The position numbers were made by a program, and so were the translations under genes. A DNA stretch of 47,773 nt from a virus (taxonomy: Duplodnaviria; Heunggongvirae; Uroviricota; Caudoviricetes). Under the pieces are notes generated by a model. That model saw nothing but the letters and a program-made list of their open reading frames with translations. It did not search any database and was not told where the DNA came from. The stretch spans positions 1-47,773 of IMG/VR virus record IMGVR_UViG_2667527975_000009; one strand, 5' to 3'. Shown one piece after another: positions 23,904 to 45,885 of this stretch (positions are counted from its first letter, which is position 1; each line of letters starts with the position of its first letter).

Positions 23904-24087
23904 CTCTTTCACTCCATCCGCGATGAACCATGAGAACGTCGTTGACGATGGCGTGCATTTTCCCGTCTTTATCATCAACGTATTTTCTGACCGTACCGCG
24001 ACTACATTTCAGTCTGCGTGCTACTTCTGTCTGGTTTCCGTATGCTTCAACGAGCATGTCTGGAATGGTTTTTACTGAGAACGTCAT
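23881..24087 (-). CDS. ninH: NinH
   Basis: 68 aa, [36 protein letters not shown]... Confidence 0.85.
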
Positions 24088-24695
24088 GCGGCCTCACTTC
24101 TGCTGTTTCGCAGGTCTTTGAGTTTCTGCTGATACTCCGCCTTGATGGCCCTGCACTCTTCGACAGTCCAGCGATGGCGGCTATGGTTTGATTCGATTTC
24201 GTCTACTGCTTCCTGCCCGATGCGGCTAATCAGTTCGACGCGATACGGAACGAGATTTCCGCTTTTGTGCTGGTTGCACACCACGCATTGCTTGTGAATA
24301 TTGCGTTCATCAAATCGGAGTTGAGGTGCCGCAGCAGTTGTCCGGTAATGTCCGGCATCCCACTGAGCAGACGTGAGCGTTCCGCACGAGATACATGGTA
24401 AGTCGCGGTCTCTTTCTCTGATGAAGGCGTTTACGGCTTGTTGGGCTTGTTTAATCCAGTAACTGCGGGGCTTTAAGGCGAGTTTTCGAATCTTAAGTTT
24501 ATCTTTCTGTTTCTGCTCCTCTCGTCGTCGTTTCTTCTCTGCTGCTTTTTCCGCTTTTTCGCGTTCTTTGCTTCGTCGTTCCAGTGCTATCTTTGTTCCA
24601 CACTCTGGAGAGCACCACCACTGATTAGCGAATGCAGGGTGAAACCATTCCCGACATTCATCGTTTTTACATCGTCTTCGCGCTGGTTTAGCCAT
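24084..24695 (-). CDS. ninG: NinG (Rap-like recombination endonuclease)
   Basis: 203 aa, [22 protein letters not shown]..., Cys-rich. Confidence 0.9.
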
Positions 24696-25420: not shown

Positions 25421-25944
25421 GCCGCCCTCCTGACGCCCTGCCCGATCGCCATCAATGCCGCTTTGGATACGGTAGTAAACATCCGTCGAGGACTGATGAA
25501 CGGTCGCCAAATCAGCAGCATTGAGCCTTTGCTGTTTCCCTTCTTCTCCAGCCCTGTCGATGGTTCGATAAAATTAATCCGTCCATCAGTGATAATACGA
25601 ACTTCGTCAACACTCTCCAGAGCCTTGCTGAACCATCCGACAGACATATCCTCTGGCACAAGCATCACTACCGTCTGTCGTTGTTGTATGCACTGCTCAG
25701 CGGCTTTTTCCACCCACGGCCTGATATTGCTGTACGGTGGGTTATTCCAGATTGCACCGTGGCTTACCCACTCAGAATTGAGCGCGTCGTCGGCCTCAGT
25801 TAGCCAGTGAGCACACAGAGCATTTTTGTCGCTCGCTGCCGAATCCAGCCAGAATCCAAACTCAATATCCAGTGCATCAAAAAGCCAAAGCGGCGTTTGC
25901 CAGCAGTCCTTGTCGTGTGCTGGCGTATTTGATTTGATAGTCAT
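25417..25944 (-). CDS. DNA N6-adenine methyltransferase (phage Dam-like)
   Basis: NPPY motif (IWNNPPYSN) with a conserved N-terminal [12 protein letters not shown] segment; internal start at MTIKSNTP. Confidence 0.8.
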
Positions 25945-26381
25945 GCAGCCCGATCTCCCCATCTCGCTTTCCACTCCAGAGCCAGTCGCGCTTCGTCTGA
26001 CCACTTAACGCCACGCTCTGTACCGAATGCCTGTATAAGCTCTAATAGCTCCGCAAATTCGCTTACACGCATCCTGCTGGTTGACTGGCCTATTACCACA
26101 AAGCCATTCCCGGCAAGGTTAGGAACAACATCCTGCTGCTTTAAGGCTGCGGTAAAAACGCACTTCCAGCTTTCTGCATCCAGCCAGCGACCATGCCATT
26201 CAACCTGACGCGAAACGTCGCCAAGGCAAGCCCAAAGCTTCCGATTTTGGTCTAAGCTGCGGTTGCGCTCCTGAATGGTTACTACGATTGGTTTGGTTGG
26301 GTCCGGAAGGATTTTCTGGATGGCTTGAATGGCGTTCTGCTGATGGATGGGGCTTCTTAGTTCAAACGTTAGTTTCCTCAT
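25941..26381 (-). CDS. ninB: NinB (Orf-family recombination mediator)
   Basis: 146 aa, MRKLTFELRSPIHQQNAIQAIQKILPDPTKPIVVTIQERNRSLDQNRKLWA... Confidence 0.9.
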   Translation of the reverse strand: MRKLTFELRSPIHQQNAIQAIQKILPDPTKPIVVTIQERNRSLDQNRKLWACLGDVSRQVEWHGRWLDAESWKCVFTAALKQQDVVPNLAGNGFVVIGQSTSRMRVSEFAELLELIQAFGTERGVKWSDEARLALEWKARWGDRAA

Positions 26382-30232: not shown

Positions 30233-30919
30233 ATGGATAAATACGAACAAAGACGACTAAGGCTGATAGAGATAAGAGACCGATTCTGTAATGGAAAGGC
30301 CTCAGAGTTGGCTCGTCGAATAGAAAGGGAACCATCATACGTTTCCAGGATGCTGTATCCGGAAGGAAAAAGCGGAAAAAAACGCATTGCTGACGATATG
30401 ATGGAACTAATTGAAAAATCTTTTAATCTCCCACGCGGATGGATGGACATGCTTGCAGATGGTAAAGCTGGAGCTACGGACCATCTTGAGTTTGCGGGTA
30501 ACGTTCGTGCGGGTTTTGTTCCGGTAATTGGTGAAGCCGTTTTGGGAGTTGATGGCTCAGTGGATATGATTGAATTCAGATCCGGTTGGTTAAGCATCTA
30601 CAGCGGCGATAAAGATGCTTACGGTCTGAAGGTTAAGGGTGACAGCATGTGGCCAAGGATTCAGTCAGGAGAATATGTTGTTATTGAACCAAATACGCCA
30701 GTACATCCAGGTGATGAAGTCTTTGTAAGGACAAAAGACGGTCACAACATGATAAAGATCATGAACAAAACAAGAGACGGTGATTATCAGTTTAGTAGCA
30801 TAAACAGTGATCACCGCCCAATCACTCTTCCTGTTGAAGAAGTTGATAAAATGCATTTTGTTTCAGCTATTGTGAAACACACCAGGTACGTAGACCAGGA
30901 CGATCTGCCAAAAGTTTGA
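30233..30919 (+). CDS. cI: CI-type prophage repressor (HTH plus S24 LexA-like peptidase domain)
   Basis: 228 aa; the C-terminal GDSMWPRIQSGEYVVIE region is an S24 autocleavage domain. Confidence 0.9.
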   Translation: MDKYEQRRLRLIEIRDRFCNGKASELARRIEREPSYVSRMLYPEGKSGKKRIADDMMELIEKSFNLPRGWMDMLADGKAGATDHLEFAGNVRAGFVPVIGEAVLGVDGSVDMIEFRSGWLSIYSGDKDAYGLKVKGDSMWPRIQSGEYVVIEPNTPVHPGDEVFVRTKDGHNMIKIMNKTRDGDYQFSSINSDHRPITLPVEEVDKMHFVSAIVKHTRYVDQDDLPKV

Positions 30920-31637: not shown

Positions 31638-31964
31638 ATGGATGCACAAACACGCCGCCGCGAACGTCGCGCAGAGAAACAGGCTCAATGGAAAGCAGCA
31701 AATCCCCTGTTGGTTGGGGTAAGCGCAAAACCAGTTAACCGCCCTATTCTCTCGCTGAATCGCAAACCGAAATCACGAGTAGAAAGCGCACTGAATCCGA
31801 TAGACCTTACGGTGCTGGCTGAATACCACGAACAGATTGAAAGCAACCTGCAGCGTATTGAGCGCAAGAATCAGCGCACATGGTACAGCAAGCCACGCAG
31901 TGAAATGGGTGTGACTTGTGTTGGTCGACAGAAAATGAAATTAGGCAGCAAACCACTTATTTGA
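31638..31964 (+). CDS. N: Antiterminator N
   Basis: 108 aa, MDAQTRRRERRAEKQAQWKAANPLLVGVSAKPVNRPILSL...; lambda N with an Arg-rich motif. Confidence 0.95.
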   Translation: MDAQTRRRERRAEKQAQWKAANPLLVGVSAKPVNRPILSLNRKPKSRVESALNPIDLTVLAEYHEQIESNLQRIERKNQRTWYSKPRSEMGVTCVGRQKMKLGSKPLI

Positions 31965-31972
31965 GGTGATAT

Positions 31973-32296
31973 ATGGAAGCATTAGTAGTAGAGCGAAGCG
32001 AGGATGGCTACTGGACGCACCCAGAATACGCCAACCTGTTTGGGGATAGAGAGGTAATTTCAGCTGATGAGTTCAGATCTTTCTGCAAGCAGCATGGCAT
32101 TGAATCATCAATTGTTGAAATGGAAAACGACAACAATCAAACGGTAATTGACGCGTATTTTGAAGATGGGAATCAAAACATCAGTGGATGGGAGCCAAGC
32201 ATGCCAGATGGAGAAGGATGGTTTGTCGGTTCGATTCACGATACAGAAGACGGTCCGATCTGCGTTTGGTTCAGGAATGTAGATAAGGACGAATAG
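31973..32296 (+). CDS. Acidic hypothetical protein directly downstream of N
   Basis: 107 aa with a high Asp/Glu content; no recognisable homology. Confidence 0.55.
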   Translation: MEALVVERSEDGYWTHPEYANLFGDREVISADEFRSFCKQHGIESSIVEMENDNNQTVIDAYFEDGNQNISGWEPSMPDGEGWFVGSIHDTEDGPICVWFRNVDKDE

Positions 32297-32430
32297 TCGG
32301 CCTTTATTTTTGGCATAAACAACAGAATAAACATTGCACTGTGTATTCATTCCAACGAGTGAATACACGGAGCAATGTCGCTCGTAACTAAACAGGAGCC
32401 GACTTGTTCTGATTATTGGAAATCTTCTTT

Positions 32431-32456
32431 GCCCTCCAGTGTGAGGGCCTTTTTAT
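32431..32456 (+). terminator. Intrinsic terminator (tL-like)
   Basis: GCCCTC-CAGTGT-GAGGGC followed by CTTTTTAT. Confidence 0.6.
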
Positions 32457-32520
32457 ATGCATACCAATAACGCTTCACTCGAGGCGTTTTCGTTATGCAA
32501 TCAAACAGAAGGAGCATCCT

Positions 32521-32691
32521 ATGCAACAGTTCGCTATTGCAGGGGCGGCATCGGTTCGCCCTTTCAACCCGATTTTATCGGTACAGCATTCACGAAAAAA
32601 TATTTTAACCGGAGCAGACTTTAAACAACCAAGAATGAAAAGCTTGCTCGAAAAGCTTTGGGATATTTTGAAACAACAAGGCCGTCCATGA
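32521..32691 (+). CDS. Small hypothetical protein
   Basis: 56-aa ORF with AAGGAG 7 nt upstream, coupled by an ATGA overlap to the next ORF. Confidence 0.35.
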   Translation: MQQFAIAGAASVRPFNPILSVQHSRKNILTGADFKQPRMKSLLEKLWDILKQQGRP

Positions 32692-32846
32692 GTTTTACAG
32701 ATAACTGGTCAGACGAAGAGTTCATTCGTCAGATGAAAGAATTAATCGGTAACGAAGGAGATATTCATGTCACTTGCAACCACAGTGAAGGAGAGCAAGT
32801 TACAGAGACGCATGTACACGCAGAAAGCTCTCTGGTATCGCCATAA
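32688..32846 (+). CDS. Small acidic hypothetical protein
   Basis: 52-aa ORF from MSFTDNW, translationally coupled. Confidence 0.3.
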   Translation: MSFTDNWSDEEFIRQMKELIGNEGDIHVTCNHSEGEQVTETHVHAESSLVSP

Positions 32847-32945
32847 TGGTGACCGCGAAGGAATGCGGGTATGCCTTAATTTGTCCCGAGTCGAAGTATT
32901 AAATCAGCGTTATTTCCTTGGGCCGTGTCCATTCTGAGGTGAATT

Positions 32946-33653
32946 ATGGATTTGAACAAATTCGATGAGCCATTCAGCCCTGAAGATATCGAATGGCGAA
33001 TACAGCAAAGCGGTAAAACACGCGATGGCAAAGTGTGGGCTATGGTGCTGGCTTATGTCACGAACCGGGCAATCATGAAACGCCTGGACGATGTTTGCGG
33101 CAAAGCAGGATGGAGCAATGAATACCGCGATATTCCCAACAACGGCGGCGTTGAATGCGGCATATCAATAAAGATTGATTCCGAATGGGTAACCAAATGG
33201 GATGCTGCTGAAAACACGCAGGTAGAAGCCGTCAAAGGTGGTCGTTCCGGTGCAATGAAGCGCGCTGCCGTTCAGTGGGGAATCGGTCGGTATCTGTATA
33301 ACCTTGAGGAAGGTTTCGCACAAACATCTCTCGATAAAAAGCAGGGGTGGCACAGGGCAAAACTGAAGGATGGAACAGGATTTTACTGGCTCCCTCCATC
33401 ACTGCCGGGATGGGCAATCCCAGCATCAGATAACAAACCATCACCAGAAAATACCAACCAGAAATCTCCATCGGTTGACTGCGAACAAATCCTGAAAGAC
33501 TTCAGCGATTATGCGTCAACAGAAACTGACAAGAAAAAACTCATCGAGCGTTATCAGCGTGACTGGCAATTAATGGCTGGAAACGAGGAGGCGCAGGCTA
33601 AATGCGTTCAGGTAATGAACATCAGAGTTAACGAGCTAAAACAGGCGGCATAA
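32946..33653 (+). CDS. Rad52-like single-strand annealing protein
   Basis: 235 aa; the N-terminal motifs GWSNEYRDIPNNGGVECGISIKID...AAVQWGIGRYLY resemble Rad52/Sak-type recombinases; followed by ssb. Confidence 0.75.
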   Translation: MDLNKFDEPFSPEDIEWRIQQSGKTRDGKVWAMVLAYVTNRAIMKRLDDVCGKAGWSNEYRDIPNNGGVECGISIKIDSEWVTKWDAAENTQVEAVKGGRSGAMKRAAVQWGIGRYLYNLEEGFAQTSLDKKQGWHRAKLKDGTGFYWLPPSLPGWAIPASDNKPSPENTNQKSPSVDCEQILKDFSDYASTETDKKKLIERYQRDWQLMAGNEEAQAKCVQVMNIRVNELKQAA

Positions 33654-34169
33654 ATGGCAAGCAGAGGCGTAAATAAGGTGATCATTATTGGTCGCCTTGG
33701 GCATGATCCAGAAATCAGATATTCACCATCTGGAACGGCATTTGCAAACCTTACCGTTGCTACGTCAGAACAATGGCGTGATAAGCAAACTGGAGAGCAA
33801 AAGGAGCAGACGGAGTGGCACCGCGTGGTAATGAGCGGGAAACTGGCAGAAATTGCCAGCGAATATCTGCGAAAAGGCTCTGAGGTTTATCTTGAAGGCA
33901 AATTGCGGACAAGAAAATGGCAGGATCAAAGCGGACAGGATCGGTTCACTACCGAAGTCATCGTGGGCGTTGGTGGAACCATGCAAATGCTTGGTGGCAA
34001 GCAAGGAGGCAATGAACAGTCTTCACCTCAGCGAAATAATGGTCAGCAACAAAGACAGCAACCTCAGCAGCAGGGAAATCACAGCGAACCACCTATGGAT
34101 TTTGACGACGATATCCCCTTTGCACCAGTAACTCTCCCTTTCCCTCGTCACGCTATTCACGCAATTTAA
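33654..34169 (+). CDS. ssb: Single-stranded DNA-binding protein
   Basis: OB-fold N-terminus, Gly/Gln-rich linker and acidic DFDDDIPF tail, followed by 15 extra residues. Confidence 0.9.
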
Positions 34170-34177
34170 GGACTTAC

Positions 34178-34726
34178 ATGAATCACTTGATGGTTGACCT
34201 TGAAACAATGGGCAACGGGCCATACGCGCCAGTTATTTCTATTGGGGCGGTATTCTTTGACCCGAATACCGGAGAAACAGGAGAAGAGTTCTCGGTAAAT
34301 ATCTCGCTTGAGTCATCAATGCGATATCGAGCGCGTCCTGACGCTTCAACGATTTTATGGTGGATGGAACAGAGTGAAGAAGCCAGAAAATCGCTAACCA
34401 GCAACACTCAGGAGCTTTCAACGGCTCTTTCATGGTTATCTGAATTCATCATAAAGAACGCTAACCACAAATTCGTTCAGGTTTGGGGGAATGGAGCATC
34501 ATTTGACTGCGTTATTCTCCGAAACAGTTATTCGCTGACAGGGCAGCCAGTTCCGTGGCAGTGGTGGAATGACCGCGACGTAAGAACAATCGTCGAGCTT
34601 GGAAAGGTAATAGGATTCGACCCTAAGCGAGATATGCCATTCAAAGGAACTCGCCACAACGCGCTTGATGATGCCATCCACCAAGCCAAATACGTTTCAG
34701 CGATCTGGAAAAAGTTAGCTAAATAA
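34178..34726 (+). CDS. 3'-5' exonuclease (DnaQ-like DEDD family)
   Basis: 182 aa with Exo motifs (DLETMG...; HNALDDAIHQAKY). Confidence 0.75.
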   Translation: MNHLMVDLETMGNGPYAPVISIGAVFFDPNTGETGEEFSVNISLESSMRYRARPDASTILWWMEQSEEARKSLTSNTQELSTALSWLSEFIIKNANHKFVQVWGNGASFDCVILRNSYSLTGQPVPWQWWNDRDVRTIVELGKVIGFDPKRDMPFKGTRHNALDDAIHQAKYVSAIWKKLAK

Positions 34727-34742
34727 TCAACAGGAGAAAACC

Positions 34743-35036
34743 ATGCCAGCGCCTCTGTATGGTGCGGATAACGCGCGCCGCTGTTCCGGCAATTCCGTAT
34801 CGGAGGTGCTGGATAAATTCAGGAAAAACTACGATCGGATAATGTCGCTACCGCAGGAAACGAAAGAGGAAAAGGAATTTCGCCACTGTATATGGCTTGC
34901 AGAGAAAGAAGAACGAGAGCGAATTTACCAGACATCAATCCGACCATTCCGCAAAGCCACATACACCCACTTCCCTGAAATTGACCCGCGCCTGCGTAAT
35001 TACCGCTCACGCTATGGCGCTATCAGTAATGACTGA
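34743..35036 (+). CDS. Abc2-like anti-RecBCD protein (tentative)
   Basis: 97 aa beginning MPAPLYGADNARRCSGNSVSEVLDKF...; the size, position and N-terminus agree with P22 Abc2 as I recall it. Confidence 0.5.
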   Translation: MPAPLYGADNARRCSGNSVSEVLDKFRKNYDRIMSLPQETKEEKEFRHCIWLAEKEERERIYQTSIRPFRKATYTHFPEIDPRLRNYRSRYGAISND

Positions 35037-35046
35037 GGAATTAACA

Positions 35047-35337
35047 ATGAAAACAATGAAGCTAAACATCGACCTCGGAAAATACGTTATTACCGGAACC
35101 AAACACGACCTGATTCTTAGTGAAAGAGGAATTATCAAAGAAGGTGAGAATGCAGGGAAAGAAACACTAAGCCGTATCGGTTATTACAGCAAGTTTGAGC
35201 ATCTGGTTAAAGAGTTATGCAACCGTGAAATTCTGTTATCTCAGGCGCAGACGCTACAGGATATTCAGCAGAATATCGAGACTTTGGGTGTGTCACTTAG
35301 CATGGCTATTGACCAGTTAGTGGAGAGTAAATCATGA
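35047..35337 (+). CDS. Hypothetical protein
   Basis: 96 aa from [13 protein letters not shown], with GAGGAA upstream. Confidence 0.5.
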
Positions 35338-35501
35338 GAGGACTTGCATACAATCCCGGCATTCTTCCGGCAGAAATGATTATTCGCCAACGCGTAAAGC
35401 CAATGCCATCGAGAGAGGAATTGCTTAAGAGAAATTCTTTTCCATCAGTGAATCAAAACAAATATCTGAATGCGATGTGGCGCAAAGGAGGCAAGCAGTG
35501 A
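35334..35501 (+). CDS. Small hypothetical protein
   Basis: 55-aa ORF ([24 protein letters not shown]...), coupled at both ends. Confidence 0.35.
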
Positions 35502-35797
35502 GTGTATATCTCATTGATAAACGTCGACGTGGGCAACAAATACCACCTGTAGGAATTCCGAATCACACATGGTTTTGCGTACTTGATATCGATGGTATGG
35601 ATGCGTTGGTTGACACTCGTCATTACTGCGATACCGCAACAGCTACTCCGGCGAAAGCAAAGAAAATGGCTGCTCTGATAGAAAACTGGACTCCACCTGA
35701 TGGTTGGTGCAATGGGAATGATCGAGATTGGCATGAAAAAATGAAGGGCTATATCTGCGATTTCTTACGTAAATGCAACGGATTCAGGGTGATGTGA
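35498..35797 (+). CDS. Hypothetical Cys-rich protein
   Basis: GTG start with AAAGGAGG 6 nt upstream ([14 protein letters not shown]...). Confidence 0.45.
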
Positions 35798-35798
35798 C

Positions 35799-36437
35799 AT
35801 GAGCAAGATTGACTATCAGGCACTGCGTGAAGCGGCAGAGAAAGCAACGTGTGGTGTGTGGTCGCTCGAATATGGAGAGGGCCGATTTGATGGTGATGAT
35901 GCACTAATTCATCGCGAGGCTGCTGGATATATTCCCATTTGCAGAATTGAAGGAGCGCATCCTGAAAGCGGTTTCGATGAAGATTTCCAAATAGAACAGC
36001 AGGCCAATGCTGAATTCATCGCCGCAGCCAATCCAGCTACCGTCTTGGCGCTGCTGGGCGAGCTGGAAACAGCAAAAAAGCGCATAGCAGAACTGGAAGC
36101 CGAACCTGTAAGCCAAACTTGCAAGTTGAACGAGCCATCGGGCAACTCTCCGGTAATTCCGGATGGTTGGATAAGCTGTAGTGAGCAGATGCCTGTAATC
36201 GGCGAGCTAAATTGGAGAACTAGTTTTCCTTTACTGGTTACGTGTGAGATCGGCGTTATACCTGCTTATTACGGCTTTGTGAGCGTTAATGGTGATAGAC
36301 ATTATGGCTTTATGGAGAGTCTTAAATACGGAGACGATAACGGCAACCATCCTCAAACTAATGAATATGGTCTGATTAGCAATGTCACACACTGGATGCC
36401 TCTACCAGAACCGCCTCAGGAGGTTAACCGTGGCTAA
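35799..36437 (+). CDS. Ead/Ea22-like protein (DUF551-type C-terminus)
   Basis: 212 aa with a C-terminal THWMPLPEPP motif. Confidence 0.65.
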   Translation: MSKIDYQALREAAEKATCGVWSLEYGEGRFDGDDALIHREAAGYIPICRIEGAHPESGFDEDFQIEQQANAEFIAAANPATVLALLGELETAKKRIAELEAEPVSQTCKLNEPSGNSPVIPDGWISCSEQMPVIGELNWRTSFPLLVTCEIGVIPAYYGFVSVNGDRHYGFMESLKYGDDNGNHPQTNEYGLISNVTHWMPLPEPPQEVNRG

Positions 36438-36714
36438 TCTGCAACTTGCCGTTAAAGGTGAATACTTCGATGCCATGATTCGCGGGGAGAAAACGGAAGA
36501 GTATCGCTTGTGTAATAACTACTGGAATAAGCGAATTATGTTCCGGGAGTATGACCGCCTGATTATCACGAAGGGATATCCGAAGCGCGACGATTCCAGC
36601 CGAAGAATTGACGTCCCGTATGACGGATATGAAATCAAGACAATCACACATCCGCACTTCGGTGATAAACCGGTAAAGGTGTTCGCGATAAAAGTGAATA
36701 TCGGCAATGAATAA
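36430..36714 (+). CDS. ASCH-domain protein
   Basis: GTG start after GGAGG; motif KGEYFDAMIRGEKTEEYR. Confidence 0.5.
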   Translation: MANLQLAVKGEYFDAMIRGEKTEEYRLCNNYWNKRIMFREYDRLIITKGYPKRDDSSRRIDVPYDGYEIKTITHPHFGDKPVKVFAIKVNIGNE

Positions 36715-37193: not shown

Positions 37194-37394
37194 ATGCAAC
37201 ACGAACTACAGCCTGATTCACTGGTTGATTTGAAATTCATCATGGCCGATACTGGCTTCGGTAAAACCTTCATCTATGACCGGATTAAGTCCGGCGACCT
37301 GCCAAAAGCCAAAGTTATCCACGGGCGAGCAAGATGGTTATATCGTGACCATTGTGAATTCAAAAATAAGCTCTTAAGCCGCGCCAATGGGTAA
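37194..37394 (+). CDS. AlpA/Vis-like excisionase or regulator (MerR-like HTH)
   Basis: 66 aa; the pattern ...IMADTGFGKTFIYDRIKSGDLPKAKVIHGRARWLYRDHCEF... fits AlpA-family proteins. Confidence 0.7.
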   Translation: MQHELQPDSLVDLKFIMADTGFGKTFIYDRIKSGDLPKAKVIHGRARWLYRDHCEFKNKLLSRANG

Positions 37395-37642
37395 AATAGC
37401 GGGTAAAACATTTCTCACATCTAAAAAATACCATTCCAATCAATCCCCTGCCGCTTCAAGTAGATGTCTGCAGGGGACACCATGAACACTTCTCACTAAG
37501 TTCAATTAATTCCATAACTCACTGTTTTAACTGATATCATCTCCTTATACTCGTCCAGCAAAGTACCATTATTTCTAATGGAATCTATACATCTTTGCGT
37601 ATAACATTGTGTATAACTGAGTTCGATCTTTTTTCTATACAC

Positions 37643-38818
37643 ATGCTGCTATCTGACATCCAAATAAAAAGAGCAAAACCGAAGGACAAACCCTATACGC
37701 TTAACGATGGTATGGGGCTATCACTCCTGATCGACACAGCGGGCAGTAAAGGCTGGCGTTTTCGCTATCGCTTTGCAGGTAAGCCTAAGATGATTTCCTT
37801 TGGCGTATATGGCGATGTGTCGTTGGCACAGGCACGTACCAAACGTGATGAAGCGCGTTCGATGTTAGCCAACGGGATAAACCCAAGTGAAGCCAGAAAA
37901 GCAGATAAGATTGCTTTGCAGTTCGCGCATGAGAACAGCTTTGAGTCTGTGGCCAGAGAATGGCACTCATCGAAAAAAGCCACCTGGTCAGAGGGTTATG
38001 CAAAAGAGGTTCTCAATTGTATGGAAAAGGATATTTTTCCTTTTATCGGCCAGCGCCCAATTGAGCAGATTGAACCATTAGAACTGCTAACCGTCCTGCA
38101 AAAAATAGAGAAAAGAGGTGCGCTAGAGCAAACCAGTAAGATCCGCCGCCGCTGTGGTGAAGTGCTTCGTTATGCTGTTGCCACTGGTAGAGCAAAGTAT
38201 AATTTTGCACCCGATTTAGCTATCGCACTCAACAAACCTAAAACCCAACACTTCCCGTTCCTGACTGAAAGCGAGTTGCCCGAGTTCGTTAATGCTCTGG
38301 ATAACTATCAGGGCAGTTTAGTTACCAAATACGCCACGCAGCTGTTGATGCTAACAGGCGTGCGAACAATTGAACTACGTGCAGCGGAATGGGCTGAGTT
38401 TGATTTAGATAATGCCTTATGGGAGATCCCCAAAGAACGGATGAAGAAACGCCGCCCCCATCTGGTTCCGTTATCAACTCAGGCGATCAATATCCTGAAA
38501 AAGCTGCAAGAAATAACAGGGAATTACAGCCTCGTTTTCCCTGGCCGGAATGACGTCAGTAAACCAATGAGCGAAGCCAGCATCAACAAAGTGATAAAAC
38601 TACTGGGTTATCACGGTCGGTTAACGGGTCACGGTTTCAGGCATACCATGAGCACCATCTTGCATGAGCATGGGTTTGAAAGTGCCTGGATTGAAATGCA
38701 GCTTGCGCATGTTGATAAGAACTCTATTCGAGGTACTTACAATCATGCGCAATATATTAAAGATCGACAAGTAATGATGGAATGGTACGCTAGCTTATTA
38801 AATACGACCTGCTATTAA
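37643..38818 (+). CDS. int: Tyrosine integrase, P4 type (second integrase)
   Basis: Start taken at the internal Met (MLLSDIQIKRAKPKDKPYTLNDGMGL...); homologous to but clearly distinct from the integrase at 1..1158. Confidence 0.9.
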   Translation: MLLSDIQIKRAKPKDKPYTLNDGMGLSLLIDTAGSKGWRFRYRFAGKPKMISFGVYGDVSLAQARTKRDEARSMLANGINPSEARKADKIALQFAHENSFESVAREWHSSKKATWSEGYAKEVLNCMEKDIFPFIGQRPIEQIEPLELLTVLQKIEKRGALEQTSKIRRRCGEVLRYAVATGRAKYNFAPDLAIALNKPKTQHFPFLTESELPEFVNALDNYQGSLVTKYATQLLMLTGVRTIELRAAEWAEFDLDNALWEIPKERMKKRRPHLVPLSTQAINILKKLQEITGNYSLVFPGRNDVSKPMSEASINKVIKLLGYHGRLTGHGFRHTMSTILHEHGFESAWIEMQLAHVDKNSIRGTYNHAQYIKDRQVMMEWYASLLNTTCY

Positions 38819-39748
38819 ATCCAGCATGAAACAAATATGGTGAGTAATTTGATACTGTTTGTTTTTTGGCAACCCAGGGAAATGCCTTACAGTTGGTTGA
38901 CTATTGTAATAATAATAGTTAAGACCAATGTTGCTGCCAAACTGGGTTGGATGTTGGGGAACAAGATTTGTAATTTGATCTGAAACATCTAAAAATTTTG
39001 CAGTAACATTTGAACTTCCTCGTTGCGTGTTGCTTGATACAAAATGACGAATCCAAACTGTATTCGCTTGTAAATTCTTGAACACCAAATGTGCGGCAAC
39101 AGCAGAAGGTTGACCACCTCCAAGATCTAGTACCTGGCCAGTAATTGTATAATCGCCAAATCCTAAGTAATTTTGTCCCACGAATTGATGTGCGTGCGTG
39201 AAAAGTTCCGGCCCATTATAATCAGCATTTTTTGCTAACTTTCTAAAGTTATCGCTAATAATAATTAACTTCGACAAAGGAAGAAGAGCGCACTGATTAG
39301 GAAGCATTTTATTATTTAAAACAACATGATAACTAATCAATTGATTTGTCGCCAACAACTGAATATCAGAGTTGGATAATGATGGATTATCATATAGAAG
39401 TGCAACTCGTCTATTTAAGTTAGCATTCAACCAATTATTAATATCATTAATCGTTGTATTGGGCTGAATAAGATATCCAGAGATGATATTATTTTTATTT
39501 GTTAATACACTTGATAAATTTTGATTTAAAGTTAAGACGTTATTGTGTGAAGAAAAATCTTCCTGATAAGGATTAAGGATAACAATTATGTCAGAATTCC
39601 AAACATTTAAACATGTTAATAAATTTCTCGTATTGACGTTAATTGGTTCTAAAATTGGTAGCAGACCATTTAGGCTAACTCCCTTCGCAACGAGGTCCCT
39701 AAGGCATAATAACTCTGTACTTCTCGCATACAAATATGGGCTATACAT
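38798..39748 (-). CDS. Cargo protein B (unknown function; AT-rich accessory gene)
   Basis: 316 aa, Asn/Leu/Ser-rich, low GC; second gene of a two-gene operon, and its 3' end overlaps the 3' end of int by 21 bp. Confidence 0.7.
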   Translation of the reverse strand: MYSPYLYARSTELLCLRDLVAKGVSLNGLLPILEPINVNTRNLLTCLNVWNSDIIVILNPYQEDFSSHNNVLTLNQNLSSVLTNKNNIISGYLIQPNTTINDINNWLNANLNRRVALLYDNPSLSNSDIQLLATNQLISYHVVLNNKMLPNQCALLPLSKLIIISDNFRKLAKNADYNGPELFTHAHQFVGQNYLGFGDYTITGQVLDLGGGQPSAVAAHLVFKNLQANTVWIRHFVSSNTQRGSSNVTAKFLDVSDQITNLVPQHPTQFGSNIGLNYYYYNSQPTVRHFPGLPKNKQYQITHHICFMLDLIAGRI

Positions 39749-39769
39749 AACTTACAACTCCTGAGGATA

Positions 39770-40651
39770 TCAACAAATTTTAATTTTTACATCCATCAAA
39801 TTCATGATGAATTCTTTTTGCTTTCTTGATAATGGTGTTGCATAACCTAAAACACGTAAACATGCTGGAAGAGAATAAATATAATCCAAAAAAACTTTAT
39901 CGTTACATCTTTTTTTCATAGCAGAGATAAAGTATTTATTTGCTATGTTTAATGGCATCTGCATGAATATCTCTTTACAATATTCATAAACCAATCCGTT
40001 AGGCATATTTATTTTAGTTGAAGTGTAATCTTCTATTATAGCTAAGAACTCTTCCTTTCTAAGAACTGAAAACAAGCTGTCACTTTTAATATAATCAATA
40101 TTTGAATCTGCCTCCTTAATGACACTCAATTGATCTTTTTTATTCAAAACCATAACTCCCACTCTGGGGAGATTTAAAGCACAATATTTACTTGCATACT
40201 CTGGATGTGTAACTATATACACTTTATCAAAAACATCCAAATAATCAGGGGCTTGAGTAATCAACCTTTTTGGTGAATCATACTCTGTCTTAATCTCGTA
40301 AGCTGTAGACGTACCATTAAACACCGCAACATCCACTATAGAGTTTTTAATTGGTAACTCTATGGACGACGAACTTGTTTTTGGGCTGTGCTTACCGAAT
40401 ATTATTTTATTGACAAGTGCTGTCTTATAAACATATTCATTTCTATAATTCAGACGCAAAAAATCATATAATGATGTAAATAAATCCCTTAGTGAAATCT
40501 CATGTTCATTATTATCATTGTTTGAAAACAGTGTTTCATAGCAGTAAGAATCAAAACTCCCAAATAAATCCGAAATATCCTTACCTTTTGCTAAGGATGA
40601 AAAAATGGGGCGACGGAAAAATTTAGCATATTCCTTTTTATTATGACTCAT
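39770..40651 (-). CDS. Cargo protein A (unknown function; possible PD-(D/E)xK nuclease-like motif)
   Basis: 293 aa, AT-rich; contains ...SIVDVAVFNGTSTAYEIKTEYD..., which resembles a D...E-x-K nuclease core. Confidence 0.7.
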   Translation of the reverse strand: MSHNKKEYAKFFRRPIFSSLAKGKDISDLFGSFDSYCYETLFSNNDNNEHEISLRDLFTSLYDFLRLNYRNEYVYKTALVNKIIFGKHSPKTSSSSIELPIKNSIVDVAVFNGTSTAYEIKTEYDSPKRLITQAPDYLDVFDKVYIVTHPEYASKYCALNLPRVGVMVLNKKDQLSVIKEADSNIDYIKSDSLFSVLRKEEFLAIIEDYTSTKINMPNGLVYEYCKEIFMQMPLNIANKYFISAMKKRCNDKVFLDYIYSLPACLRVLGYATPLSRKQKEFIMNLMDVKIKIC

Positions 40652-41332
40652 TACTCATACTCTATAAACATCATGCAATTTGATAAGTTATGACGAATTC
40701 TCACCATCCAGTTACTACCTGTATACATACTAATCAAAAAAAACGAGTACGCAAGATACGAAAGTACTTTTCTTGTTCACCAGTTAGCTTACCTTGATCC
40801 TCACCAGCGACTGGAAGATAGGTAGCAGTATATGTGGAAACCTTCCCCTAGCTAGGTCTACAAACGTAGTTTGGGCATTTAGGCTCCACGATTCACGGTT
40901 TGACACGGCCTGATATCTGCACATTCGTTTTGATATGCAGCAATCGTGAAAAAGGAAAATATACGCTCGACAGACCAAAACGGCACTACACCGCACCCGC
41001 CTGCGGTTTTCATATCACTAAAAATTTTCAGCCTGGATTTTTTACAAACGATACCGCCAGTCCGTGCCAGTCCTCGAGATGTACTGCGATACAGGAACTG
41101 AAAAGAATGAAAAGAAATTCATTTTTTTTCAGTTTTACTGTCCGTCGAATCTATGGCCTGAATACGCAACTCTATGATATTAAATGGATAATTAATTTTA
41201 GGTGTGTGATTTTATGAAGGTTTGTGAAACATGAAGAAGATAACCAGTTGAAAAATAATAATTTTATGACCGTATAAACTGAAATCCTGTGTTCAGGTTC
41301 CGGGAACAGATCGGCCATTCCCGACGCATACT

Positions 41333-41605
41333 TTACCCATTCTTTTGCGCAGCCAGCAGCAACTTTAAAGCCTTTTCCCGTTCCTCGGGTGGAATTGCAT
41401 CAATCAGCTCTTTAACCCTTCCCTGCCCGTTCAGCGCGCTTGGACTAACGGAATGGGAGAAAGCAACATTCATCACAAACGAGTGACCGCACTCCACATT
41501 AGAGCAATAGCAGTACACATCGTACAGTTGTGGGTGTTTCCTGTTTGTTTTACCTATCCGTGCTACTGCCTGACATGTGGGGCAGTACATTCTCATCATC
41601 TTCAT
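41333..41605 (-). CDS. Ogr/Delta-family zinc-finger transcriptional activator
   Basis: 90 aa with C-x2-C...C-x4-C (MYCPTCQAVARIG...CYCSNVECGHSF). Confidence 0.8.
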   Translation of the reverse strand: MKMMRMYCPTCQAVARIGKTNRKHPQLYDVYCYCSNVECGHSFVMNVAFSHSVSPSALNGQGRVKELIDAIPPEEREKALKLLLAAQKNG

Positions 41606-41679
41606 CGTTCTGTGCCCTATACTGTTGCCCGCCAGAAGAAGGGATTTGGATCCCTACCTCTTGTTCTGAACGTGTAACA

Positions 41680-41862
41680 CTGGTAACACGTGTAACGCTA
41701 TTGATTTAAAAGGATTTAATCTGTTACCAGTTAGCAAAATCAAGAGGTAACGCGTGGTAACACACCATTTTTTGTTACCTCTGTTACCAGTCAGTATTTT
41801 TGACTGGTAACACTGAAGAACCGCATCAGTAACGGGTGTTACCTCTGTTACCAGTGTTACCT
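41680..41862. repeat. Iteron array (TGTTACC / GGTAACA, at least 10 copies in both orientations); putative satellite ori
   Basis: Visible directly, for example CTGTTACCAG four times, GGTAACAC and GTGTTACCTC, immediately downstream of the primase gene. Confidence 0.65.
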
Positions 41863-41887
41863 CATAAAAATAAGACTCACGCGATAA

Positions 41888-44575
41888 TCACTCAGGTTCA
41901 GCGCTTCCCAGTACCTGTGTATTGAACTGGTACACACGTTTAAGCCCTATTTCTGGCAGGCGAATGCTGTTTTGCGTCCGGCCATCTTCACCGGGTTTCA
42001 GCCAGCCCGCGTCCACACACAACCTGGCCACCTTACGCGAGTCAAATCCCTTACAGATCTCCTTCCAGCCTGACGGGAGAACGTAGAACGTCACAACCGG
42101 CTCTGTCACGTTGTCTCCTTTATCGACTTTTCTGAATCCCATCATTGAAACAGGCCGGTTCCTGTCGTCATTCCAGTCAGCAAACCGACTGAACTGATTA
42201 CGCGTCATGAAGTCCCGAACCTGTTCAAGTGCCGCTTTATCTTCCTGATTAGCTGTATGGCCCCGGTCAGCCATCCATGCAGCCAGACAGCTTTGAGCGG
42301 CACGAAAGGCCTCTCCCTCCGGCCATCCTGTGATGCCCGCTTTTGTGGCCAGCTCCCCGGCCATCGCAACCAGAGCAAAACGGGTAACAGCCCGGCCAAC
42401 CTGATTCCCGGCATTTTCCGGCGTCAGCCTTCGGGTATACTCTTTCAATAAGGCTTTCGCCTGACTGGTCAGTTCCGGCAGATCAGCGGTCAGGCAATAC
42501 AGCCAGTCGCGGAATGGTGCACCATGATAATGCGCTACGTGCTGCTCAAGATGCTCAGCCAGGGTTTTCCCGCTACTGAAGCCATGAAGTTCTTCAAACA
42601 CGCCATACTTGCCCGAATCGCTTGGGATCTGGATCATTCTGACCTCAACCCCGGCATACGTACGTTCCCCGGCGCTTGCCGCATGCTCTACCAGTGACAG
42701 TTCCCCGGTAGACAGAAACAACAGATTCCAGCGGTTGGTTTCCCTTACCGAACCATCTGTTCTGGCTCTGGCTTTGCCCTGCCCGTTAGCCAGCATATAA
42801 GCGATATTTCCCGCCTCCCTGCCGTCAACCTCCCGGATTTCATCCAGCATCAGCGTGGCATCATTGCGGCGGCTCGCCGTTCCTTCTAAGGCATTCCCCG
42901 TCGCCCGCCACGTATGCCAGAAATCTGTTCCACCACATACTGATGCAGCCACTTTCATCGTCGTGGTTTTACCGTCTGTGGATTCCCCTTTGAGGTGATA
43001 ACCTCCACCGCCGATACCAACCAGTTTCAGAAGGGGGGCAGCAAATGCCAGACTCACCGCAAAGGCAAGACGGGCATTCTTTATGCAATAACGGCCTATA
43101 TTTTCACGCCAGCCCTCTGATGTGCCGCTGACACGAAAATCACGCCCCTGCACACTCGATGTTTGTAAGATGACTGACTGGGCTTCGCGCCCTATCACTT
43201 CATCCTGGAGAACGTAAACCCCGCCGTGCCAGCCAGTTTTATTCACACAGGTTACTTTTCTGTCCGGTTTACACAGCGAGATATATTCCATCAGGAATGC
43301 TCTGGCCATGCCGTTAATGTTGATGTAAGAAAGCCCGTTAACCAGCAGAACGCGGCGCAGTTCTTCCCCGCTACCGCCCAGCATCTCCATCGGCATTGCC
43401 CATTTACGGCTGTTTCCGTTGGTATCTTCCCATTCCAGCAAACGCCCGTAATTACTTCCATCAGCATCACTGGTGATTGCCGTCACCCGCAACGGACTGC
43501 AAATTTTGATATTACGTATCTCTGTATCACCATCAGACTTATTAACCAGCTTGTCGTACCACAAATATTCTTTTGTCAGCCGGAACCCTTCTGGTAAACG
43601 GGTCTGCCCTTTGCCATGCAGCGTCATTTCTTCACGAAAGGCATCTCTCGCCCGTTCTTTCCCCACTTCCTGCCGATAATCATCCCAGTCAGCCTTATGG
43701 CGTACCGGAGGGAGCGTTACCCAGCCATCCACCGCTTTGGCGGCTTTCTCTGCCTGAATACGCCCGGTGTTTTCTTTGCCGTCAGCCAGATCATTATCTC
43801 CGGCCAGAATGATCCGGGTTTCCGGCCAGCGTTTTCGGATCTGCTCCGTCACCTTCAGTAAATTGGTGGCAGCGACAGCCGCCACGATCCATCCTTCAGT
43901 CAGCAGACTGACGGTAAGCGCCGTGGCAAAACCCTCAGTGATAATCACCTGTTCAGGTGTTTCAGCGGGTATATCGGTCAGGGCAATGAATGCGCCAGAC
44001 AGCTGGCTACCGGGCAGCAGACTTTTATCCCCGTCAGGATTGATAAGCTGGCCACCAGTAATATTCCCGGAAATATCCGTCAAAGGCAGCAGTAATGAAC
44101 CGGTGGAAAATGTTATTCCGGCCAGATTCAAAGGCTGTGACAGCAAGGGAAGTGAATACCCGTGTAAGCTCTTATTTGTCAGATAGACCGGCTCACCATT
44201 GCAGGACTGCTGTCTGAGTCTGGTATATCGCTCCGCGCCCGCTTCTTTTCCTGCGGCCTTTTTCCTGGCTGGCAATGCGGGCTTCTCCTGTATTTCTGGT
44301 AATGCAAGCGCCTCAGATACCATCCCGGCGACTTCTTTTATCTTTCTTCCTGTCACCAGACGAACCAGATCAAGACCATCGCCATGACCGCACTGATTAC
44401 AAAACCACGTCCCTCGCCCCGCTTTATCGTCCAGTCGAAAACGATCTTTTCCACCACAGGCAGGGCAAGCCCCATGATGTCCTGCGGACGGTACTTTAAT
44501 ACCTAATGCTGACAGGATATAAGGCCAGCGCCCAATTGCAGCTCCGGAAATCGTGGATACAGACGGTGTTTTCAC
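41888..44575 (-). CDS. Primase-helicase (P4 alpha-like)
   Basis: 895 aa with an N-terminal Zn-ribbon (CPACGGKDRF...CNQCGHGDG), a TOPRIM-like region (IITEGFATAL...AGDNDLADG) and Walker A motif GESTDGKTT. Confidence 0.9.
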   Translation of the reverse strand: MKTPSVSTISGAAIGRWPYILSALGIKVPSAGHHGACPACGGKDRFRLDDKAGRGTWFCNQCGHGDGLDLVRLVTGRKIKEVAGMVSEALALPEIQEKPALPARKKAAGKEAGAERYTRLRQQSCNGEPVYLTNKSLHGYSLPLLSQPLNLAGITFSTGSLLLPLTDISGNITGGQLINPDGDKSLLPGSQLSGAFIALTDIPAETPEQVIITEGFATALTVSLLTEGWIVAAVAATNLLKVTEQIRKRWPETRIILAGDNDLADGKENTGRIQAEKAAKAVDGWVTLPPVRHKADWDDYRQEVGKERARDAFREEMTLHGKGQTRLPEGFRLTKEYLWYDKLVNKSDGDTEIRNIKICSPLRVTAITSDADGSNYGRLLEWEDTNGNSRKWAMPMEMLGGSGEELRRVLLVNGLSYININGMARAFLMEYISLCKPDRKVTCVNKTGWHGGVYVLQDEVIGREAQSVILQTSSVQGRDFRVSGTSEGWRENIGRYCIKNARLAFAVSLAFAAPLLKLVGIGGGGYHLKGESTDGKTTTMKVAASVCGGTDFWHTWRATGNALEGTASRRNDATLMLDEIREVDGREAGNIAYMLANGQGKARARTDGSVRETNRWNLLFLSTGELSLVEHAASAGERTYAGVEVRMIQIPSDSGKYGVFEELHGFSSGKTLAEHLEQHVAHYHGAPFRDWLYCLTADLPELTSQAKALLKEYTRRLTPENAGNQVGRAVTRFALVAMAGELATKAGITGWPEGEAFRAAQSCLAAWMADRGHTANQEDKAALEQVRDFMTRNQFSRFADWNDDRNRPVSMMGFRKVDKGDNVTEPVVTFYVLPSGWKEICKGFDSRKVARLCVDAGWLKPGEDGRTQNSIRLPEIGLKRVYQFNTQVLGSAEPE

Positions 44576-44982
44576 AGCAGCACCTCCTGACCTTCCGGCT
44601 TCACAAATTCAAAACCTTCGGGTAGTTCGCCATCAGGTGCTCCGAAAATAATATCCCGGTAAACCTCACGCATCTCTGTGACACCAAAAACTGACAGGCG
44701 AATATTTTCTGACATAAAGCCTGGTTTAAGCATTTTTTCCAGTTTCTCTGCGGCCAGTATGCAACCAGCATCAGCCCCAAACTCATTCACCCACGGCATT
44801 TCAATATGGTAAATAATATTACTCACCACTTTTTCGTGGGAGAGTTCTATTCGTTCGCCATCTTCAATATAAACAGGTTCATTATGAACACGCACCATTA
44901 AGGAAATGAATGCATCAGCAATGTAGTAGCGTAAGACTGCTGTTCGTAAAGCATGCGCCTTTAAATTTTGATTATTATTCAT
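44572..44982 (-). CDS. Hypothetical protein (primase operon)
   Basis: 136-aa ORF overlapping the primase start by 4 nt. Confidence 0.55.
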   Translation of the reverse strand: MNNNQNLKAHALRTAVLRYYIADAFISLMVRVHNEPVYIEDGERIELSHEKVVSNIIYHIEMPWVNEFGADAGCILAAEKLEKMLKPGFMSENIRLSVFGVTEMREVYRDIIFGAPDGELPEGFEFVKPEGQEVLL

Positions 44983-45211
44983 CGCGCATCACTCCCTTAA
45001 TTGTGCTGGTTTCCTTAACAACGCCATCCAGTTGTTCGGCAATACAGGCCACTAAAGCCGCAGCGCCTTCCGCTGAAACAGTTCTCGCTCCATTCACTGT
45101 GGGCACGGACAAGACCTCTGCAAGAAACTCACTGGCCAGTGCCGCCCGTAACAGACGACTCTCCCCCTGTTCACTCAATATGCAGCCTTGCTTAAAATTC
45201 ATGGATTTCAT
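44975..45211 (-). CDS. Hypothetical protein (primase operon)
   Basis: 78-aa ORF, coupled. Confidence 0.5.
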   Translation of the reverse strand: MKSMNFKQGCILSEQGESRLLRAALASEFLAEVLSVPTVNGARTVSAEGAAALVACIAEQLDGVVKETSTIKGVMRDE

Positions 45212-45630: not shown

Positions 45631-45655
45631 ACAAAAAAACACGCCTAGCGCGTGT
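45631..45655 (-). terminator. Intrinsic terminator or attenuator in the leader upstream of the primase operon
   Basis: On the minus strand, ACACGC-GCTAG-GCGTGT followed by UUUUUU. Confidence 0.6.
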
Positions 45656-45875: not shown

Positions 45876-45885
45876 TGTCGCTAAG

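Follow-up and report, generated by a model that had tools for sequence, protein, structure and literature searches.

A known lambdoid recombination module of Rad52-type annealase, SSB, predicted DEDDh exonuclease and Abc2 in the early-left operon of an Sf6/P22-like Escherichia coli prophage

In a 2025 survey of lambdoid phages, modules combining an anti-RecBCD protein, an SSB, a nuclease and a SAP form one functional type, found in 25 phages; the DnaQ gene of epsilon34 is judged there to be a likely member of the recombination (Rec) module, and 3'-5' DnaQ-like nucleases are reported usually to inhibit recombination (PMC12315714). The anti-RecBCD component is best described in P22, for which a cryoEM structure of Abc2 with RecBCD and a hijack model are available (PMC9836394). 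Abc2 binds RecC at the Chi-recognition domains and not where DNA enters, the site that Gam and gp5.9 use; residues 3-66 form the RecC-bound helices and P68 enters the active site of PpiB, while the helicase of RecBCD is not substantially affected in vitro and exonuclease activity is kept in cells (PMC9836394). The loading of phage annealases by Abc2-RecBCD is a hypothesis even for P22 (PMC9836394). Absence or avoidance of Chi is reported for Abc2-encoding phages (PMC3784561). [quoted passage not shown]

The window investigated here, a single stretch of 47,773 nucleotides, contains a complete prophage that extends from int to xis and includes virion, lysis-control, replication and Nin genes. 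The prophage adjoins a second mobile element. Four contiguous genes in an early-left operon had been proposed at 32946-35036 from the letters alone, and ORFs were found at exactly those coordinates, placed between N and xis, all on the + strand and separated by 0, 8 and 16 nt (Table 1). None is interrupted, and each has a start codon and a ribosome-binding site. The operon assignment holds as well, with a repressor, an N-type antiterminator and a hairpin on the same strand upstream and Ead/Ea22-type genes downstream, the gene directly after abc2 encoding a DUF5405 protein; the Cro-like, CII, replication, Nin and Q genes have the opposite orientation. We conclude that the block is a known Rec module of an Sf6/P22-like E. 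coli prophage, located in the early-left (PL) operon. It corresponds to the ES18 functional type of lambdoid Rec module, with all four members present and contiguous (PMC12315714). No Chi site was found in the 47.8-kb window, but the expectation from composition is only 1.36 and the absence is not significant.

Table 1. Coordinates of the Rec module, its parts and the neighbouring features (nt positions in the window; aa positions in the protein)
Feature	Position	Strand	Size	Remarks
S24 repressor	30233-30919	+		Upstream of module
Lambda-N-type antiterminator	31638-31964	+		Upstream of module; PF11438, E 1.5e-26
Terminator-like hairpin	32431-32448	+		Upstream of module
Small acidic ORF	32688-32846	+	52 aa	P22 arf position, directly upstream of annealase; phrog_2123, E 1e-41
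Small ORF	32767-32937	+	56 aa	80 nt overlap with the 52-aa ORF, different frame
Rad52/Rad22-family annealase ORF	32946-33653	+	235 aa	Predicted
Annealase, Rad52-type core	aa 4-136
Annealase, small beta unit	aa 126-149
Annealase, disordered linker	aa 162-175
Annealase, Erf-type C-terminal three-helix domain	aa 179-234
Bacterial-type SSB ORF	33654-34169	+	171 aa	OB fold, Gln-rich linker, tip, extension
SSB, acidic tip MDFDDDIPF	aa 148-156
SSB, C-terminal extension	34122-34166		15 aa
DEDDh 3'-5' exonuclease ORF	34178-34726	+	182 aa	Polarity predicted
Abc2 ORF	34743-35036	+	97 aa
TorI-like excisionase ORF	37194-37394			Beyond the Ead/Ea22-type genes; named by synteny with torI of the E. coli E21845 prophage; no family match

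The 97-aa protein, which the earlier note had called Abc2-like, matches the family Anti-RecBCD_p2 over its entire length (PF11043, E 2.7e-62, 207.4 bits, cut-off 25; residues 1-97 cover all 97 profile positions), as well as phrog_656, 'abc2 anti-RecBCD' (E 2e-54), and the P22 Abc2 chain 8b1t_A of PDB 8B1T, end to end over 1-97 (E 1.4e-56). The comparison that the note proposed, with Abc2 of P22 (NC_002371), gives 92% identity (89 of 97 residues) at equal length and the same position after the annealase; the Sf6 and mEp235 copies are 96-98% identical. Within residues 3-66, the only differences from P22 are D10N, P11A, L32R and A65S, and P68 is kept. Judged by sequence, the protein is the orthologue of P22 Abc2 and a predicted RecC-binding modifier of host RecBCD. 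The family behind the note's term "anti-RecBCD factor" is thus confirmed, but a modifier or hijacker of RecBCD fits the published structure better than an inhibitor (PMC9836394).

The other three labels of the earlier note also agree with profile searches, and for all four proteins the PHROGs assignments coincide with those of Pfam. The annealase matches Rad52_Rad22 (PF04098, E 2.3e-26, 93 bits, cut-off 20.3), and a Pfam scan at E <= 0.01 gave no match to ERF (PF04404), the N-terminal annealing domain of Erf-type proteins. Its AlphaFold model (mean pLDDT 83) has a beta-beta-alpha-beta-beta-beta-alpha core, and Foldseek ranks yeast Mgm101 and human RAD52 highest (probability 0.99-1.0, E 1e-4 to 9e-4). 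The protein is classified on these predictions as a putative single-strand annealing protein of the Rad52/Rad22 (Sak) type. Residues 157-235 are 63% identical to residues 134-205 of P22 Erf, this being the sole region aligned by BLASTP. The annealase is therefore a predicted chimera of a Rad52-type core and an Erf-type C-terminal domain, and the shared domain explains database labels such as 'Erf-like' or 'similar to P22 Erf'. In 35 homologues the motif W148/P151/W156/P159 does not vary. Residues 129-164 were considered as WW-domain-like from a match to Prp40, which is not significant (E 0.1-0.14).

The last 84 residues of the annealase are 100% identical to those of Sf6 gene 28 and mEp235 gp32. 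Alone, the C-terminal domain is predicted as a three-helix bundle (pLDDT 95.6); against the PDB, Foldseek returned no solved counterpart, only generic helical bundles (best E 1.6), and a relationship to the C-terminal domain of Redbeta or to another solved partner-binding domain was rejected for want of Foldseek support. We also rejected the domain as a strict Abc2-specific adaptor, since each occurs without the other. Abc2 is present in 225 phage records and the domain in 125; Abc2 accompanies Sak4 in HK620 and about 68 Stx-phage records, no Stx-phage name appearing in the organism tally of records that hold the domain, and the domain sits on ERF cores in Klebsiella and Erwinia phages with no adjacent Pfam Abc2.

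The SSB is a clear member of its family (PF00436, E 2.1e-38; TIGR00621, 184.7 bits, cut-off 53.95), with 64 of the 102 variable sites of the OB fold at third codon positions. In E. coli SSB, the acidic tip DDDIPF lies at the extreme C-terminus, and partner proteins bind the free carboxylate of its Phe. Here the same tip (residues 151-156) is followed by 15 additional residues, and the NCBIfam models stop at residue 156. Of 33 related SSBs, 25 carry this extension, and it is identical in mEp235, epsilon34 and one E. coli prophage, although the whole SSBs are 73-74% identical. Its conservation could be an effect of a recombination boundary at the DNA level.

The exonuclease covers the full Rv2179c-like DEDDh profile (PF16473, E 2.8e-73, 245.8 bits, cut-off 27) and has all the catalytic motif residues (D7, E9, D110, H160 and D165). 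Its closest solved structure is 8kel, a 227-aa 'Exodeoxyribonuclease' (E 6.8e-14); its length and the S87A/D90A variant 8ken lead us to regard it as T4 DexA. A 3'-5' polarity and a DNA substrate are expected from T4 DexA and the family name only. This refines the DnaQ-like label: with 3'-5' polarity by family, the protein would not be the counterpart of the lambda-Exo-type nuclease that carries out resection in classical two-component recombinases. No lambda Exo/YqaJ- or RecE-type nuclease was found by Pfam and PHROGs in the four-gene block or the flanking ORFs (31638-36714), and the adjacent 5'-3' dsDNA exonuclease of a Lambda Red/RecET-type recombinase is missing from this region. The exonuclease gene occurs in 15 of the 33 Rad52-type modules sampled, the slot between ssb and abc2 being empty in 18; the slot holds an HNH endonuclease in Sf6 and ES18, and HNH endonuclease and exonuclease together in some E. 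coli prophages. From this distribution, the exonuclease is an optional cassette and seems dispensable for the module. Its absence from about half of otherwise identical modules counts against a role in recombination.

Two small ORFs precede the annealase. The start of the 52-aa ORF overlaps the stop of the preceding cIII-like ORF (ATGA); it is annotated as gene 30 in Sf6 and is annotated in mEp235 too. Among 46 distinct relatives, 10 of the 13 variable sites in 32688-32766 fall at codon position 3 of its frame. It is possibly an accessory factor. Its identification as P22 Arf was rejected because homology is not established: the match is limited to 6 of 7 residues around an N-terminal SDEEFI motif (WSDEEFI versus FSDEEFI; pairwise E 0.013). 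The 56-aa ORF has a good Shine-Dalgarno sequence (AAGGAG) 7 nt upstream and an excess of variation at codon position 3 of its own frame, which accounts for 10 of 15 variable sites within the overlap and 20 of 34 outside it. In Sf6 it is annotated as gene 29; it is conserved 5' of both Rad52-type and Erf-type annealases and was found in 75 of 80 Abc2 loci among the matches listed, and pairwise comparison with P22 Arf revealed no similarity.

Neither the module nor its gene order nor any of its protein families is new: several sequenced phages have them annotated, hundreds of E. coli and Salmonella genomes contain them, and the 2025 survey covers them. Annotated copies of the four-gene block occur in mEp235, mEpX2, epsilon34, g341c and 132 complete E. 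coli genomes. Public databases already contain each of the four proteins, with identical sequence, under these names, and exact sequences of module proteins recur on up to at least 1000 contigs. The searches gave at most 60-80 matches each, so the co-occurrence counts reported here are partial.

We suggest, with a probability of roughly 0.85, that this is an Sf6-like lambdoid Rec module in which RecBCD modified by Abc2 resects DNA ends and the SSB and annealase pair the resulting strands. The genes would be expressed in the lytic phase, from PL and with antitermination by N. By analogy with P22, RecBCD bound by Abc2 would lose its response to Chi and its ability to promote RecA-dependent recombination, keeping its helicase and its nuclease on the 5' strand. 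Since the module has no 5'-3' nuclease and Abc2 leaves RecBCD active, the host enzyme would serve as the missing resection nuclease and produce 3' single-stranded tails. These tails would be coated by the phage SSB, as suggested by the Sak4-SSB pair of HK620, and paired by the annealase with complementary DNA; annealing would close the injected, terminally redundant genome into a circle and would also feed recombination-dependent replication. The least certain step of the proposal concerns the exonuclease, whose most likely task is to trim 3' ends or flaps that lack homology from annealed intermediates; the model is T4 DexA, whose 3'-5' exonuclease activity is reported to contribute to intron homing (PMC12153337). 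For the proteins of this module, binding of Abc2 to RecC, annealing and nuclease polarity are predicted from relatives.

The resection step could be read differently if Abc2 acts as a Gam-like inhibitor that shields phage ends and rolling-circle replication, with ssDNA coming from replication forks or from host nucleases such as RecJ. Abc2 and Gam have been treated as equivalent 'RecBCD inhibitors', both tied to Chi avoidance (PMC3784561), and the company that Abc2 keeps, with Erf, Rad52-type and Sak4 annealases, argues against a specific physical hand-off; abc2 also had no effect on Sak4 oligonucleotide recombineering. [quoted passage not shown] That the module is a decaying remnant of a cryptic prophage, with no current function, seems extremely improbable. 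Prophage genes often decay, and this one is integrated next to another mobile element; but every ORF keeps its start codon and ribosome-binding site, the prophage runs unbroken from int to xis, the same proteins are 91-100% conserved in plaque-forming Sf6 and mEp235, and substitutions are concentrated at third codon positions.

For the exonuclease, the alternative is an accessory or defence cassette outside recombination, a DexA-like 'HREX' nuclease degrading the 5hmC DNA of superinfecting T-even phages. This has a precedent in EcD, an E. coli homologue of DexA that digests T4 DNA, spares unmodified DNA and protects against T4; DexA homologues are most abundant in Escherichia (PMC12153337). 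The closest solved relative of our exonuclease being DexA, the variable content of the slot, a Trp aligned with DexA W152 and the lack of a D90 equivalent, as in EcD, all point in the same direction. Even so, the protein is not the published EcD, belonging to the same family only (the marker alanine is A83 here and A78 in EcD; the EcD accession is not among the listed cluster members), and DexA D169 aligns with F147, an Asp following one residue later. Expression in a lysogen, where the PL operon is repressed, is unsupported: the search for an internal promoter gave one weak match nearby (34013-34040), and promoter-like matches are rarer than in shuffled sequence (8 versus 16.3). No PADLOC defence model matched beyond a weak generic DEDDh hit (E 2e-4), and the lambdoid survey counts the tightly packed DnaQ gene as part of the Rec module (PMC12315714). 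A defence function is therefore rather unlikely in our view.

A further proposal, speculative and quite improbable as a whole, is that the SSB extension and the annealase C-terminal domain jointly form the partner-recognition code of the module. The 15 residues would bury the C-terminal Phe, so that the host SSB interactome (ExoI, RecQ, RecO and others) would not be recruited, and the tailed SSB would be read specifically by the phage annealase. The three-helix domain, swapped as a unit between Erf-type and Rad52-type cores, would be the part through which the annealase attaches to ssDNA coated by SSB, or else to Abc2-RecBCD. The identical tail on diverged SSBs and the sharing of the domain between core families are compatible with this proposal; the separate occurrence of the domain and Abc2, and a recombination boundary as the source of the tail's conservation, speak against it.

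The locus raises the questions of why a 3'-5' exonuclease lies beside an annealase, why an SSB hides its C-terminal tip and what the partner of the portable Erf-type C-terminal domain is. These questions concern a very common module and bear on whether Abc2-modified RecBCD hands ssDNA to phage annealases, and on the design of better recombineering cassettes.

Among described systems, coliphages mEp235 and mEpX2 and the Salmonella phages epsilon34 and g341c, whose Rec modules belong to the ES18 functional type, share all four genes with this module, in identical order and spacing, together with the 15-aa SSB tail. The DNA of the block is 91.5% identical to mEp235 (98% in the exonuclease region) and 86% to epsilon34. 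Differences from mEp235 are only allelic: the SSB belongs with that of Sf6 (98% identity), not with that of mEp235 (73%), and DUF5405 follows abc2 as in Sf6. These differences from mEp235-type modules are ordinary lambdoid mosaicism. In Sf6 (genes 28-27-26-25), the SSB is 98% and Abc2 96% identical, in addition to the fully identical annealase C-terminus; the same small ORFs lie upstream and the same DUF5405 gene downstream, and the integrase is identical over the 55 residues compared. On the other hand, Sf6 carries the HNH endonuclease (gene 26) where our module has the DEDDh exonuclease. Its SSB stops at DIPF and gene 26 ends with sequence coding for 21 residues, which shows that the HNH gene was inserted into the 3' end of ssb.

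The P22 arrangement arf-erf-abc1-abc2 occupies the same operon position and likewise joins an annealase to Abc2 with no 5'-3' exonuclease, but the core of its annealase is ERF (PF04404) and not Rad52/Rad22 (PF04098), and the place of abc1 is taken here by the SSB and exonuclease genes, an Abc1 homologue being found in 0 of 80 loci among the matches listed. HK620 (hkaM-sak4-ssb-abc2) shares the order of annealase, cognate SSB and Abc2, the latter about 95% identical, whereas its annealase is the RecA-like Sak4, its SSB, a DUF669 protein that ends in NDYPPF, is non-canonical, and the module has no nuclease. Lambda Red (gam-bet-exo) has the same operon position and the same overall task, in that it neutralises RecBCD and uses a Rad52-superfamily protein to anneal ssDNA. 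However, lambda uses the DNA mimic Gam, which fully blocks RecBCD, together with its own 5'-3' exonuclease, whereas the module described here would rely on an Abc2 that leaves RecBCD active, an SSB and a nuclease of predicted opposite polarity.

Four genes encoding a Rad52-type annealase, an SSB, a DEDDh 3'-5' exonuclease and Abc2 were confirmed in the window where the earlier note had placed them, all on the + strand, separated by gaps of 0, 8 and 16 nt and followed by the next gene after 10 nt. Pfam and PHROGs assign the same functions to 4/4 proteins, supporting the labels proposed in that note, and chance is excluded as a source of these matches. The placement in the early-left (PL) operon was also right, judging from the + strand order of repressor, N-type antiterminator, hairpin, small ORFs, block and Ea-type genes; a cIII-like ORF lies on the same strand.

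Coordinates of the features in the window
Feature	Position	Strand	Remarks
Integrase	1-1158		
Tailspike, P22-type	1267-3441		virion genes also between int and xis
PR-side genes		-	Q, NinG, NinX, NinB, DnaB-like helicase, CII, Cro-like gene
NinG	24084-24695	-	Rap-type junction endonuclease, E 2e-91
NinB	25941-26381	-	Orf-family recombination mediator, E 4e-54
S24 repressor	30233-30919	+	
Lambda-N-type antiterminator	31638-31964	+	
Terminator-like hairpin	32431-32448	+	
First small ORF	32688-32846	+	precedes annealase; arf position
Second small ORF	32767-32937	+	overlaps first by 80 nt, different frame
Annealase	32946-33653	+	235 aa; Pfam Rad52_Rad22, E 2.3e-26
Annealase beta unit	33330-33425		residues ~129-160
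Annealase three-helix C-terminal domain	33480-33650		residues 179-235
SSB	33654-34169	+	171 aa; Pfam SSB, E 2.1e-38
SSB extension	34122-34166		residues 157-171
Exonuclease	34178-34726	+	182 aa; Pfam Rv2179c-like DEDDh 3'-5' exonuclease, E 2.8e-73
Abc2	34743-35036	+	97 aa; Pfam Anti-RecBCD_p2, E 2.7e-62, residues 1-97 on 97/97 profile positions
TorI-like xis	37194-37394		prophage's own excisionase
P4-like element	37595-47773		
Second integrase	37595-38818		starts P4-like element
Cargo ORF	38798-39748		phrog_34524; low GC (0.33-0.35)
Cargo ORF	39770-40651		PADLOC candidate-defence model 'cll', E 1e-18; low GC (0.33-0.35)
DUF927/Toprim primase	41888-44575		P4-like element
P2-family major capsid gene	45886-46890		P4-like element

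The window represents an integrated Sf6-like prophage (P22-like, Lederbergvirus). The integrase has 100% identity to Sf6 Int over the available 55 residues, and since attP is annotated between xis and int in Sf6, these two genes are expected at opposite prophage ends, where they lie here. No tRNA gene was found in the window. NinB and NinG belong to the PR operon, so the phage recombination toolkit extends past the PL module. The neighbouring P4-like element, which also has a regulator and an Ash-family gene, is outside the module finding; its integrase shows 47% identity to the Sf6 Int N-terminus.

The likeness of the 97-aa protein to P22 Abc2 proposed in the earlier note holds. The two proteins share 92% identity (P22 NC_002371) and the same length, and both genes follow the annealase in the PL operon. 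The alignment with the solved P22 chain (8b1t_A; E 1.4e-56) spans the full length. Identity with the copies of Sf6, mEp235 and E. coli prophages is 96-98%. A cryoEM structure of Abc2 on RecBCD exists, in which residues 3-66 are the part ordered on RecC and host PpiB holds P68 in its active site (PMC9836394). Only four positions differ from P22 within residues 3-66, and P68 is kept. Abc2 is also found beside Sak4 and in many Stx phages.

The annealase is a chimera of a Rad52-type core and an Erf-type C-terminal domain. Its N-terminal 136 residues correspond to the core, and a PDB comparison of the AlphaFold model (mean pLDDT 83) finds yeast Mgm101 and human RAD52 at probability 0.99-1.0. Between residues 157-235 and the C-terminal domain of P22 Erf, the core of which belongs to a different Pfam family, identity is 63%, and this resemblance explains the 'Erf-like' database label. 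Modelled alone, the domain forms a three-helix bundle (pLDDT 95.6), with no significant match among solved structures. In the 80 viral contigs whose Abc2 genes are closest to that of the window, it accompanies an ERF core in 36 and a Rad52 core in 33, and therefore moves between cores. It is not tied to Abc2, being also found on ERF cores of Klebsiella and Erwinia phages without Pfam Abc2 beside them. Between core and linker there is a small beta unit with W148, P151, L153, P154, W156 and P159 invariant in 35 homologues; its match to the Prp40 WW domain is weak and non-significant (E 0.1).

Bacterial SSBs usually end in a DDDIPF tip. The phage SSB has this canonical acidic tip (MDFDDDIPF) followed by 15 further residues, whereas curated SSB models stop at residue 156. 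The extension occurs in 25 of 33 related SSBs and is identical between proteins otherwise 73-74% identical overall. It may mask the tip or bind a phage partner. Only 4 sites vary in its 48 nt, compared with 102 in the 315 nt of the OB fold; such low variation would be expected from selection on the peptide and equally from a conserved recombination boundary. The SSBs without it are Sf6-type genes with an HNH endonuclease gene at the 3' end of ssb, and the extension-coding sequence is now at the end of the HNH gene. In Sf6 itself (L002 3467-4429 compared with window 34124-34169), HNH gene 26 terminates in sequence coding 21 residues in the tail region of the window SSB, while Sf6 ssb closes with a regenerated DDSDIPF. 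This arrangement points to insertion of the HNH gene into the 3' end of Sf6 ssb with duplication of the tip, which explains the old annotation '14 residues identical to E. coli SSB'. Some E. coli prophages have the HNH and exonuclease genes together.

Both small ORFs are found upstream of the annealase in Rad52-type and Erf-type modules. Codon-position variation supports the first frame to 32766 only and the second from 32767 on. The first shares with P22 Arf only a 6/7-residue match (WSDEEFI/FSDEEFI). The C-terminal helix-turn-helix of P22 Abc1 (P22 locus L003, 26970-27254) matches Sigma70_r4_2 (E 3.4e-6), and a similar one is found in Klebsiella phage RCIP0034, in a protein of 101 aa encoded two genes after the Erf-type annealase.

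The identities and arrangement of the four proteins come directly from this analysis; their mechanism would follow from precedents. With Abc2 bound to RecC, as in the P22 work (PMC9836394), RecBCD would still unwind and degrade the 5' strand, with no response to Chi and no support of RecA-dependent recombination, and would thereby become the resection nuclease of a phage module without one of the right polarity. By analogy with HK620, Rad52/RPA and RecO/SSB (PMC5928155), the phage SSB would coat the 3' tails and help the annealase, which would pair them with complementary DNA. Such pairing would close the terminally redundant genome into a circle and give concatemers. The Chi octamer (GCTGGTGG) is absent from both strands of the 47.8 kb, with 1.36 expected by composition; alone this is not significant, and it agrees with the Chi avoidance reported for Abc2-encoding phages (PMC3784561).

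The role of the exonuclease is the least secure part of this mechanism. Present in 15 and absent from 18 of 33 Rad52-type modules, it is an optional component. It has the DEDDh residues D7, E9, D110, H160 and D165, and its closest solved relative (E 6.8e-14) is taken as T4 DexA, for which 3'-5' trimming of non-homologous ends during intron homing is a precedent (PMC12153337). DnaQ-type nucleases mostly antagonise recombination (PMC12315714). The exonuclease could instead be a defence protein against 5hmC phages rather than a recombination component, as proposed for E. coli DexA homologues (PMC12153337), but we consider this unlikely, mainly because its gene lies inside a repressed operon and lacks a convincing separate promoter.

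The masked SSB tip, the portable Erf-type C-terminal domain and the 3'-5' exonuclease function are the sole parts that might repay work, and new biology is established in none of them. The block itself is a widespread Rec module that was already known. The records of coliphages mEp235 and mEpX2 name its genes 'Rad52/22 family double-strand break repair protein', 'single-strand binding protein', 'exonuclease' and 'Abc2 protein', and it is also annotated in the Salmonella phages epsilon34, g341c and NM-3. Among 5426 complete E. coli genomes, 1386 match part of the region and 132 match 80% or more of it; RefSeq annotates the four products there. Public databases already contain the exact sequences of all four proteins with those names, some of them on at least 1000 contigs. 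The genetics and biochemistry of the related HK620 Sak4-SSB-Abc2 module are published (PMC5928155). Functional types of Rec modules were defined in 2025 in a survey that covered 325 lambdoid phages (PMC12315714). One type, with ES18 as prototype and 25 phages, combines anti-RecBCD, SSB, nuclease and annealase. The survey also finds DnaQ-like 3'-5' nucleases in Rec modules and regards the epsilon34 gene, which is tightly packed, as probably a true member.
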